A stretch of DNA of 64,000 bases from a virus (Duplodnaviria > Heunggongvirae > Uroviricota > Caudoviricetes): the IMG/VR virus record IMGVR_UViG_2850773344_000009. One strand, 5' to 3'. The notes below the pieces were generated by a model. It ran no database searches, was not told where the DNA came from, and saw only the letters and a program-made list of their open reading frames with translations. Each line of letters starts with the position of its first letter. The stretch's first letter is position 1. The translations under genes and the position numbers were made by a program. Shown piece after piece: positions 10,059 to 11,510 of the stretch.

Positions 10059-10071
10059 TACACCATAGGTG
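10059..10071. repeat. IS4 target-site duplication, left copy (tacaccataggtg)
   Basis: 13-bp sequence repeated at 11498..11510 directly flanking IS4 ends. Confidence 0.85.
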
Positions 10072-11497
10072 TAATGCCGATCAGTTAAGGATCAGTTGAC
10101 CGATCCAGTGGCTGTGTAAGAATCCGGAAACGCTCACTTGTTTCCGGATTTTTTTATGCACATTGGACAGGCTCTTGATCTGGTATCCCGTTACGATTCT
10201 CTGCGTAACCCACTGACTTCTCTGGGGGATTACCTCGACCCCGAACTCATCTCTCGTTGCCTTGCCGAATCAGGTACTGTAACGCTACGCAAGCGCCGTC
10301 TTCCCCTCGAAATGATGGTCTGGTGTATTGTTGGCATGGCGCTTGAGCGTAAAGAACCTCTTCACCAGATTGTGAATCGCCTGGACATCATGCTGCCGGG
10401 CAATCGCCCCTTCGTTGCCCCCAGTGCCGTTATTCAGGCCCGCCAGCGCCTGAGAAGTGAGGCTGTCCGCCGCGTGTTCACGAAAACAGCGCAGCTCTGG
10501 CATAACGCCACGCCGCATCCGCACTGGTGCGGCCTGACCCTGCTGGCCATCGATGGTGTGTTCTGGCGCACACCGGATACACCAGAGAACGATGCAGCCT
10601 TCCCCCGCCAGACACATGCCGGGAACCCGGCGCTCTACCCGCAGGTCAAAATGGTCTGCCAGATGGAACTGACCAGCCATCTGCTGACGGCTGCAGCCTT
10701 CGGCACGATGAAGAACAGCGAAAATGAGCTTGCTGAGCAACTTATAGAACAAACCGGCGATAACACTCTGACGTTAATGGATAAAGGTTATTACTCACTG
10801 GGACTGTTAAATGGCTGGAGCCTGGCGGGAGAACACCGCCACTGGATGATACCTCTCAGAAAGGGAGCGCAATATGAAGAGCTCAGAAAACTGGGTAAAG
10901 GCGATCATCTGGTGAAGCTGAAAACCAGCCCGCAGGCACGAAAAAAGTGGCCGGGACTGGGAAATGAAGTGACAGCCCGCCTGCTGACCGTGACGCGCAA
11001 AGGAAAAGTCTGCCATCTGCTGACGTCGATGACGGACGCCATGCGCTTCCCCGGAGGAGAAATGGCGGATCTGTACAGTAATCGCTGGGAAATCGAACTG
11101 GGATACAGGGAGATAAAACAGACGATGCAACTGAGCAGGCTGACGCTGAGAAGTAAAAAGCCGGAGCTTGTGGAGCAAGAGCTGTGGGGTGTCTTACTGG
11201 CTTATAATCTGGTGAGATATCAGATGATTAAAATGGCGGAACATCTGAAAGGTTACTGGCCGAATCAACTGAGTTTCTCAGAATCATGCGGAATGGTGAT
11301 GAGAATGCTGATGACATTGCAGGGCGCTTCACCGGGACGTATACCGGAGCTGATGCGCGATCTTGCAAGTATGGGACAACTTGTGAAATTACCGACGAGA
11401 AGGGGAAGGGCCTTCCCGAGAGTGGTAAAGGAGAGGCCCTGGAAATACCCCACAGCCCCGAAAAAGAGCCAGTCAGTTGCTTAACTGACTGGCATTA
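10072..11497 (+). mobile_element. IS4, complete (1426 bp) inserted in the tR1 hairpin between nutR and cII
   Basis: Ends taatgccgatcagttaagg / ccttaactgactggcatta (remembered IS4 termini); length 1426 bp; flanked by 13-bp direct repeat; flanks rejoin to lambda-like tR1 sequence. Confidence 0.9.
10138..11484 (+). CDS. IS4 transposase
   Basis: 448-aa ORF filling the element; recognised as IS4-family (DDE) transposase. Confidence 0.9.
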
Positions 11498-11510
11498 TAC
11501 ACCATAGGTG
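11498..11510. repeat. IS4 target-site duplication, right copy (tacaccataggtg)
   Basis: Identical to 10059..10071. Confidence 0.85.

Follow-up and report, generated by a model that had tools for sequence, protein, structure and literature searches.

The early region of the 64,000-nt viral sequence analyzed here (the window) carries an IS4 element in the spacer between cro and cII, which raises the question of how the element came to lie at this position and whether it silences the genes beyond it. Our comparisons indicate that a chromosomal IS4 very probably entered the cro-cII spacer of a Shigella flexneri lambdoid prophage in a single transposition, at a site that fits the target preference of the element, and was then inherited by related isolates. 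The insertion is one of several decay lesions in this prophage and is not demonstrably the one that silenced it. Coordinates of the features discussed are given in Table 1.

Table 1. Features of the IS4 insertion and the surrounding early region, in window coordinates.
Feature	Position	Strand	Basis or remark
207-aa ORF at Q (late antiterminator) position	3863..4486	-	gene order only
DnaB-like helicase	7295..8746	-	downstream of IS4
O-like replication initiator, 274 aa	8721..9545	-	downstream of IS4
cII-like activator gene, 92 aa	9728..10006	-	PF05269
CII-binding box of pRE, TTGCGAGTACTTGT	9984..9997	+	homology with Sf6 annotation; transcript must cross IS4 to reach cI
Hairpin region annotated tR1 in Sf6	10036..10064	-	Sf6 annotation; now 1.4 kb downstream of nutR
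Target duplication, left copy, TACACCATAGGTG	10059..10071		cII side
Complete IS4, 1,426 bp	10072..11497	+	transposase antisense to pR transcription; 99.4% identity to MG1655 IS4
IS4 left inverted repeat (IRL), TAATGCCGATCAGTTAAG	10072..10089	+	
Intrinsic-terminator-like hairpin and T7 run, inside IS4 left end	10118..10160	+	inverted repeat; -23.5 kcal/mol; faces pRE transcripts
IS4 transposase gene, intact, 442 aa	10156..11484	+	NF033592, PF13006, PF01609
17-nt stretch of IS4 antisense transcript complementary to boxB, CAGCCCUGAAAAAGGGC	11453..11469	-	reached by 1/1000 shuffles
Intrinsic-terminator-like hairpin (11 bp), then TCTTTTTC, inside IS4 right end	11458..11493	-	-18.7 kcal/mol; faces pR
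IS4 right inverted repeat (IRR), reverse complement TAATGCCAGTCAGTTAAG	11480..11497	-	
Target duplication, right copy, TACACCATAGGTG	11498..11510		nutR side; completes rutB in pR direction
Equivalent of lambda rutB, TCAAATTAAACCACACCTAT	11504..11523	-	lambda RefSeq annotation and alignment; kept whole by the duplication
nutR (boxB 11525-11539, boxA 11548-11555)	11525..11555	-	sequences as in lambda
434-type cro, 71 aa	11565..11780	-	
pR promoter-like site	11808..11836	-	
434-type cI repressor, 210 aa	11884..12516	+	
nutL boxB	13097-13111		
N antiterminator	13222..13545	+	lambda N with K65E and I107T

Identity of the element and its empty site

The element has all the features of the IS4 subgroup within the IS4 family, namely the size, the ends (TAATGCC...), a single DDE open reading frame with the IS4 N-terminal domain, a duplication in the range of 10-13 bp, isoform-level identity, and a target composed of an A-run, a palindrome and a T-run. 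Its terminal inverted repeats match each other at 16 of 18 positions, and the transposase scored 299.6 bits against NF033592 (cut-off 115), with the Pfam domains Nterm_IS4 and DDE_Tnp_1. The IS4 of strain MG1655 is equal in length and identical at 1,417 of 1,426 nt (9 differences), while the transposase differs from K-12 InsG at seven residues. Duplications of 10-13 bp are documented for the IS4 subgroup (PMC2266710, Table 1). Here, the two 13-bp copies are perfectly identical and abut the ends of IS4 (the 29-mer of the occupied site is GCATACACCATAGGTGTAATGCCGATCAG). An earlier note on this DNA had described a complete 1,426-bp IS4 with a 13-bp target duplication, situated between nutR and cII; the ends, length, transposase and perfect repeat all agree with that description, and nutR and cII do flank the element.

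With IS4 and one repeat deleted, the rejoined site differs from phage lambda at a single base between boxA and the ATG of cII. Across 1,562 bp it shares 99.6% identity with phage Sf6, and 29 complete E. coli genomes matched at least 80% of this 1,562-bp stretch. The comparison with IS4-free relatives that the earlier note had called for thus recovered the exact empty site in lambda, Sf6 and many E. coli prophages. A perfect 13-bp repeat at canonical IS4 ends, together with an exact empty site in relatives, rules out a chance pattern. There is virtually no prospect that IS4 in the nutR/cII spacer represents an assembly artefact or a chance repeat, given that the identical structure occurs in independent complete assemblies, as well as in draft contigs whose ends coincide with the IS boundary, and that the duplication is perfect and the IS4 ends are canonical.

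Position relative to nutR, rutB and tR1

Both boxA (CGCTCTTA) and boxB (GCCCTGAAAAAGGGC) are present downstream of cro. In lambda coordinates the duplicated segment is 38295-38307; its 13 bp comprise the final 7 nt of rutB and the following 6 nt, and make up a short palindrome (ACACC-TAT-GGTGT) at the rutB 3' end. On the cro side, rutA-boxB-rutB is intact; on the other side, now 1,439 bp away, so are the tR1 hairpin and the cII leader. The earlier note had identified the target as the stem-loop of tR1 itself, a placement that we dropped after mapping the site onto the lambda and Sf6 annotations. The hairpin annotated as tR1 in Sf6 (GGTGTATGCATTTATTTGCATACATTCAA) lies just downstream of the target, overlaps it by only 6 nt, and remains intact on the cII side. 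What held from that description is that the flanks rejoin into a lambda-like rutB-tR1 sequence. Moreover, termination at tR1 depends on Rho, with release approximately 13, 35 and 68 nt after rut (PMC4344519), and tR1 is therefore not defined by a hairpin. Suppression of Rho-dependent termination by N is known for lambda (PMC4344519, PMC3737525). A search of positions 8500-13800 against Rfam (E ≤ 0.1) returned no match.

Target preference and spread of the occupied site

We derived the IS4 target pattern from 64 other, non-redundant IS4 flanks, using a model that treats both arms as symmetric. An A-run occupies -23 to -16 of these flanks, and G predominates at -4 (51/64) and -1 (54/64); complete sites are often palindromes between A and T runs. 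The resulting pattern is an A-run, ~4 nt, an 11-13 bp palindromic core (CACC...GGTG), ~3 nt, and a T-run. The site in the window reads AAA-TGCA-TACACCATAGGTG-TGG-TTT, which is an exact AAA-N20-TTT, and under the 64-site model it ranks second among the 62,487 positions of the IS-free window (the best-scoring register at the site has an 11-bp core, versus the actual 13-bp duplication). Comparison of the target with the IS4 consensus, also proposed earlier, accordingly gave a good fit, and specificity within the target arms has been called 'spectacular' for the IS4 subgroup (PMC2266710). Insertion at the rutB palindrome is explained by this fit, and a terminator region was hit because IS4 favors palindromes bordered by A and T runs, and such sequences frequently resemble terminators; the 64-site survey restates this preference with modern data.

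The earlier note had further suggested that the hairpin may be a natural hot spot for IS4. Recurrent, independent hits on the rutB/tR1 palindrome of lambdoid phages would be in line with the rank of the site, and some other phage sites do hold IS4, inserted one way round in one viral contig and the other way round in another (e.g., L064/L070 and L065/L080). However, among 5,426 complete E. coli genomes, 3,592 carry IS4 somewhere and 716 carry the uninterrupted 116-nt module, and IS4 was at the site in none of these 716. A relaxed search that accepted IS4 on either strand at 10-40 nt past boxB recovered only the same lineage from viral contigs and nothing from metagenome contigs, and the exact left junction had no match in genome contigs or metagenome contigs. 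The same junction is found in CP000266.1 (strain 8401), UGYR01000001.1, a JGI contig, a draft genome and a Logan assembly. All occupied copies have the identical junction, the 274-aa O variant, and one Shigella flexneri prophage background, and because they share that background they point to a single inherited IS4 event in Shigella flexneri. Judged from these collections, a natural hot spot is extremely unlikely.

Prophage background and other lesions

The prophage combines 434-type immunity with a lambda-type N/nut system and an Sf6-like early region. The window matches CP000266.1 (strain 8401) and CM001474.1, and resembles the SHI-O region of Shigella flexneri serotype 5 (strains 8401 and M90T; PMC1550401) in having gtrA, gtrB, a third gtr gene, and ~15 kb of SfV sequence. 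The product of the third gtr gene (417 aa) is 97.6% identical to that of SfV gtrV. The notion that the window is one intact SfV-like phage was rejected, as its SfV content is limited to 5793-20655 and a terL fragment. The region in strain 8401 was previously reported to consist of IS-rearranged phage remnants (PMC1550401), and the full text of that report, searched for 'IS4', does not discuss IS4 at nutR/tR1.

Several other features bear on the state of the prophage. The endolysin gene is frameshifted, an IS3-family element breaks the prophage after the lysis genes, and the nearby terL is truncated at codon 439 by an IS3-family element. Damage to the O gene was considered and rejected: the 66-bp difference from Sf6 is in frame within the iteron array, and other prophages have similarly short O proteins (273 aa) annotated at this position. 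The sole NCBIfam match of the ORF at the Q position was TIGR02642, at 25.1 bits (below the cut-off of 101.4). Prophages that look defective can nevertheless be inducible (PMC2669165), so it is not certain that this one is already dead.

Transcription across the insertion

Upstream of cII, O, the DnaB-like gene and Q, pR was the one promoter-like site identified, and IS4 lies between it and these genes; the gene order agrees with the earlier claim that pR transcription must cross the element to reach the replication genes and Q. A promoter scan found no outward-reading promoter in IS4, the only sites seen being pR and the IS4 transposase promoter, and the idea that IS4 itself re-drives cII-O-P was dropped for that reason. 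IS4 also separates the cII-dependent promoter pRE from cI, which the earlier reading overlooked. The means of overriding polarity by antitermination are in place: N, nutL and nutR are intact, the cognate N is encoded in the pL operon, and nutR lies upstream of IS4.

On sequence grounds, pR transcripts should stop inside IS4 when N is absent. They would meet the terminator-like hairpin and U-run 5-40 nt into the element, followed by approximately 800 nt of antisense IS4 RNA that is untranslated, contains more C than G and would suit Rho, so that N-independent leak to cII, O and P would be lost. When N is present, antitermination from the intact nutR should carry the polymerase through IS4, probably less efficiently, by analogy with lambda r32 and r14. 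The strong terminator in the left end of IS4 would be expected to stop transcripts from pRE, in which case cII could no longer drive cI. Maintenance of cI from pRM is untouched, and immunity would therefore be expected to persist.

The strongest effect proposed for the insertion is that of the earlier note, in which strong polarity of IS4, even on induction, keeps cII, O, P and Q silent at all times, and one insertion locks the prophage in a non-inducible state. This would be consistent with pR being the sole promoter-like site upstream, the lack of an outward promoter in IS4, the hairpin and U-run that face pR transcription, and the untranslated, C-rich antisense RNA. A 17-nt anti-boxB segment could, in addition, sequester nutR RNA. 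However, N is only two residues from lambda N, and both nut sites are intact, with nutR preceding the element. N-modified polymerase passes both Rho-dependent and intrinsic terminators. Lambda r32 and r14, despite their IS insertions, still plaque on nus+ hosts, with N-dependent growth (PMC4807359). Because the prophage also has other inactivating lesions, a single lock cannot be singled out. We consider a complete block by this one insertion unlikely, and the claim that IS4 renders the element non-inducible is unproven and probably overstated. The complementarity to boxB was noticed after the fact and is most likely coincidental. It involves the U-run of the terminator hairpin and its flank (GCUCUUUUUCGGGGCUG), which are complementary without interruption to a 17-nt stretch made up of boxB and the two bases before it, and which fall within 45 nt of the junction in the pR transcript; the predicted stability of the IS4-boxB duplex is -34 kcal/mol, versus -7.9 kcal/mol for the boxB hairpin. 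Such pairing could weaken N action more than in r32/r14. In its extreme form, the right end of IS4 in this orientation would be an 'anti-nut' cassette, whose duplex would displace N from boxB, abolish nutR antitermination and block cII-O-P-Q completely, unlike r32/r14, and this we regard as very unlikely. If IS4 were to block early-right transcription despite N, it would provide a compact natural tool for studying N-nut complex persistence.

Selection might also have kept the insertion if it tamed the prophage (less lethal replication, less kil-type expression on SOS, and no pRE-driven functions) while preserving immunity and the neighboring serotype-conversion genes. In accordance with this, the insertion is common to several isolates, cI, cro and N are intact whereas late functions are broken, and IS-mediated prophage inactivation is common (PMC2669165, PMC1550401). 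However, descent and drift explain the sharing among isolates equally well in a species whose IS elements have expanded massively, and retention by selection seems quite unlikely. The reading we prefer, a single transposition followed by inheritance, makes the insertion an instance of ordinary IS-driven prophage decay, one that matters little beyond annotation. It is nonetheless a clean, datable marker of prophage decay in the serotype 5 S. flexneri lineage.

Comparison with known systems

The closest known relative of the element is the IS4 of E. coli K-12 (insG; NC_000913 4502090-4503515), which shares its length of 1,426 bp, its ends, its 442-aa DDE transposase and 99.4% nucleotide identity. 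The K-12 copy differs in its insertion site, in the 9 nt and 7 aa noted above, and in its own duplication, which is 12 bp (within the 11-13 bp range) compared to 13 bp in the window. The interrupted module is likewise that of lambda (38249-38359): boxA, boxB, rutA, rutB, the tR1 hairpin and the cII leader agree at every position but one, a T/C mismatch in annotated rutA within the boxA-boxB spacer. Unlike in lambda, the module is split by 1,439 bp after rutB, and its neighbors are 434-type cro and cI and an Sf6-type cII rather than lambda genes.

Regarding the choice of site, IS4 reportedly entered the pheST attenuator and a single site in galT, and is said to follow an AAA-N20-TTT target rule (Mayaux et al. 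1984; Klaer et al. 1981). As in the window, those targets are palindromic and terminator-like, between AAA and TTT. The pheST attenuator is an intrinsic attenuator, whereas the target in the window lies in a Rho-dependent phage terminator region.

With respect to its consequences, the insertion is a natural counterpart of the classical lambda r32 (IS2) and r14 (IS1), whose insertions are positioned in the cro-cII/O interval. In each case, pR/nutR and the replication genes are separated by an IS. The elements differ, and the window IS4 is at the 3' end of rutB, while those of r32 and r14 are in or near cII. Furthermore, r32 and r14 are laboratory phages, whereas the case described here is a natural Shigella prophage. 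In r32 and r14, the IS adds termination and leads to greater reliance on N/Nus antitermination (PMC4807359).

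A complete IS4 between nutR and cII

The element inserted in the early-right operon, which lies on the minus strand, is a complete IS4. Its left end (TAATGCCGATCAGTTAAG) starts at 10072 and an imperfect inverted copy ends at 11497, giving 1426 bp, and a 13-bp direct repeat, TACACCATAGGTG, abuts both ends (10059-10071 and 11498-11510). One long open reading frame (ORF; 10156-11484, plus strand) encodes the 442-aa IS4 transposase, which scored 299.6 bits against NCBIfam NF033592 (cut-off 115) and matched Nterm_IS4 and DDE_Tnp_1 in Pfam. Compared with the annotated IS4 of Escherichia coli K-12 MG1655, the element is equal in length and differs by 9 nucleotides and 7 residues. 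Ends, repeats, intact ORF and the K-12 comparison all agree with the earlier note, which had described a complete IS4 with a 13-bp target duplication, and gene order bears out its placement between boxA/boxB (nutR) and cII.

Features of the early region and the IS3-family copies (window positions)
Feature	Position	Strand	Remark
pR-like promoter	11836-11808	-	promoter scan
434-type cro	11780-11565	-	
boxA	11555-11548	-	
boxB	11539-11525	-	
cII-like gene	10006-9728	-	followed by a 53-aa ORF
O-like gene	9545-8721	-	
DnaB-like helicase	8746-7295	-	
nin-type genes		-	between DnaB-like helicase and 207-aa ORF
207-aa ORF at Q position	4486-3863	-	gene order; family matches all below threshold
lysis genes		-	after 207-aa ORF
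434-type cI	11884-12516	+	
nutL boxB	13097	+	
N	13222-13545	+	lambda N with two substitutions
IS3-family element, two inverted copies	1-801 and 41414-42214		99.6% identical; orfA at 434-736

The end of cI is overlapped by a 158-aa ORF (12441-12917), located where phage 434 has its "repressor protection protein" gene, and a 184-aa minus-strand ORF (13546-14100) lies directly beyond N.

For an empty-site search, the IS and one repeat copy were removed and the rejoined 1562 bp used as query. It matched phage Sf6 over its full length at 99.6% and phage Huey at 99.2%, and in 29 complete E. coli genomes the match covered 80% or more of the query. Between boxA and the cII start codon, the rejoined sequence differs from lambda 38249-38362 at a single base, in the boxA-boxB spacer, and ten further prophages encoding an identical CII protein have an uninterrupted cro-cII gap of about 110-120 bp. 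The flanks, whose failure to rejoin the earlier note had considered, thus match Sf6, lambda and E. coli prophages once joined.

Position of the target relative to tR1

Alignment with lambda places the IS at the boundary between rut and the release zone. The lambda RefSeq annotation gives rutA as 38249-38266, nutR as 38265-38281 and rutB as 38282-38301; the duplicated 13 bp, read in the pR direction (CACCTATGGTGTA), corresponds to 38295-38307, that is, the final seven bases of rutB and six more, and forms a small palindrome (ACACC-TAT-GGTGT). The tR1 of the Sf6 record (GGTGTATGCATTTATTTGCATACATTCAA) is a larger hairpin just downstream, and when the RNA of the empty site was folded, boxB and the small and larger hairpins each formed a stem of their own. 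The claim that the target is the tR1 stem-loop is imprecise: it was the small palindrome at the rutB end that was hit, and the larger hairpin shares only six bases with the target. "Stem-loop of tR1" is also imprecise because lambda tR1 is Rho-dependent, with release sites ~13, 35 and 68 nt past rut (PMC4344519), and terminates over a zone (PMC3737525). The duplication preserves rutA-boxB-rutB in full next to cro and, across the IS, the complete large hairpin and cII leader.

Target preference and occupancy

Other IS4 copies were gathered by a left-end scan of genome and viral contig collections, from which 64 left flanks were kept after dropping redundancy and the window's own lineage. In these flanks an A-run occupies -23 to -16 and positions -14 to -9 are rich in C, with G at -4 (51/64) and -1 (54/64). 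Complete copies have duplications of 11-14 bp, often palindromic (CACC...GGTG, CTCC...GGAG), with a T-run 3-4 nt beyond; a strong hairpin is centred on the duplication in about half of 19 independent complete sites, many of which resemble intrinsic terminators acting in both directions. In the window, the site is AAA-TGCA-TACACCATAGGTG-TGG-TTT, i.e. AAA-N20-TTT with a central palindrome, in agreement with the AAA-N20-TTT rule that Mayaux et al. reportedly stated for IS4 in 1984, together with an insertion in the pheST attenuator. A two-arm weight matrix from the 64 sites, applied to every position of the IS-free window, ranked the real site 2nd of 62,487 positions (z = 4.5); a matrix built on just the first 39 sites placed it 4th. 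The K-12 copy is a poorer fit to the pattern, so IS4 does not follow this preference without exception.

A natural IS4 hot spot, as the earlier note had suggested, is contradicted by occupancy. Of 5,426 complete E. coli genomes, 716 have the 116-nt module from boxA to the cII ATG without interruption, 3,592 contain IS4, and in none is IS4 joined to more than ~25 bp of these flanks; the top coverage of a 2351-bp query in this set (62%) came from the IS alone. Among viral contigs, the pattern of boxB followed 10-40 nt later by IS4, in either orientation, occurred once, in a contig with 99.99% identity to the window; metagenome contigs had no match. Window positions 8956-12684 are 100% identical to UGYR01000001.1, and the same junction was found in Shigella flexneri 5 strain 8401 (CP000266.1, ~288.4-289.8 kb), a JGI contig, a Logan assembly and a draft assembly with a contig that begins within the IS end. 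As the junction is identical in all carriers and they have the same uncommon 274-aa O variant in common, the sequences point to one insertion event, inherited within a lineage.

Compared with Sf6, the origin iteron array in the O-like gene is shorter by 66 bp, an in-frame difference of 22 codons at ~9131-9160. Only 47 blocks of the protein index list the exact 274-aa variant, which co-occurred with the insertion in the inspected places with readable upstream sequence. Two other phage sites, AAGGGCACCAGAAATGGTGCCTTTTTT and GATAACGCCAGCAGACTGGAGGAGTTTTC, hold IS4 in both orientations in different viral contigs (loci L064/L070; L065-L067/L080/L095), and may be genuine prophage targets that IS4 hits repeatedly.

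Predicted consequences for transcription

A pR transcript would exit rutB and enter the right end of IS4, which in this direction presents an 11-bp hairpin (GCCAGUCAGUU-AAGC-AACUGACUGGC, -18.7 kcal/mol) followed by UCUUUUUC and, beyond it, untranslated RNA for ~800 nt (C/G ratios 1.2-2.2). From this terminator-like hairpin and C-rich untranslated RNA, we infer that when N is absent, transcripts should end shortly past nutR with an efficiency no lower than that of tR1, and that the stop is probably tighter. The whole antitermination apparatus is present upstream of the IS, and N is said to relieve the polarity of insertions generally (attributed to Adhya et al. in 1974). A promoter scan found no outward promoter-like site in the IS. 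In the opposite direction, the transcript of the cII-dependent promoter pRE, whose CII box (TTGCGAGTACTTGT, 9984-9997) was placed by homology with the Sf6 annotation, faces a predicted terminator in the IS4 left end (10118-10160, -23.5 kcal/mol, T7 run); as it would meet this terminator, cII-driven establishment synthesis of cI should be cut off, an effect absent from the earlier note. Immunity should persist, because pRM and cI are untouched.

IS4 antisense RNA 29-45 nt from the junction (11469-11453) is complementary at 17 contiguous positions to CAGCCCUGAAAAAGGGC, which is boxB plus two bases (11525-11541). Pairing of the two segments is predicted at -34.2 kcal/mol, compared with -7.9 for the boxB hairpin, and such a duplex might in principle compete with N for boxB. 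The fold of the whole 121-nt junction transcript is much more stable than those of shuffled sequences (z = -6.2), and a run of 17 complementary positions was reached in 1 of 1000 IS shuffles. The complementarity was found after the fact and is thus probably coincidental.

Other lesions and the surrounding prophage

IS4 is one of several lesions in the prophage. The endolysin gene (SfV R homologue; 2413-2887, minus strand) is frameshifted and probably a pseudogene: positions 2887-2573 encode the counterpart of SfV R residues 1-105, and 2625-2413, in a different frame, that of residues 88-158. An IS3-family copy begins at 801, immediately after the lysis/KilA-N genes; its inverted counterpart cuts off an SfV-type large terminase at codon 439, and neither terS nor the 5' part of terL was found in the window. 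An 85-bp piece of the same IS3-family end lies at 43563-43647, beside further IS3-family ORFs (42300-43186). The IS3-family copies suggest IS-mediated inversion or nesting, and their arrangement is probably the IS629-mediated inversion reported around SHI-O, a S. flexneri serotype 5 chromosomal region, in strain 8401 (PMC1550401). The window's SfV sequence comprises only SfV 5793-20655 (tail genes through gtrV, gtrB and gtrA), in agreement with the ~15 kb of SfV remnants published for the surroundings of SHI-O in that strain (PMC1550401). The shortened terL ORF has exact matches in CP000266.1 and CM001474.1 (M90T assembly).

The integrase gene (21230-22390) adjoins gtrA (22652-23014), an order also present in the free phage SfV; similarity to phages of the mEpX2/HK542 type stops at 22450 and SfV homology begins at 22387. 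Because the two homologies meet there, the int-att-gtr junction (22387-22652) resembles a hybrid att site joining two different prophages integrated in tandem, not a prophage end. A second run of large minus-strand ORFs (43635-57519) resembles another phage's virion-gene module, including a 576-aa ORF (43635-45365) with an N-terminal lytic transglycosylase domain and two adjacent ORFs (55257-56321 and 56315-57154) that may be the two parts of a single split gene. A further IS3-family orfA occupies 57181-57519, with Rha, lysis and IS2-related sequences beyond.

A non-inducible lock by this IS4 alone, as the earlier note had proposed, is unlikely given the upstream antitermination apparatus and the other lesions. 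Prophages that seem defective are sometimes inducible (PMC2669165), so neither a prophage "locked by IS4" nor one "dead anyway" can be asserted from sequence alone. The earlier interpretation as a whole is partly supported. The boxB complementarity is the sole evidence favouring a stronger block than in r32 and r14, lambda mutants with IS2 and IS1 in the cro-cII/O interval; both still plaque on nus+ hosts (PMC4807359). IS4 and the targets it prefers are already known, as are IS insertions between cro and cII and their N-suppressible polarity.
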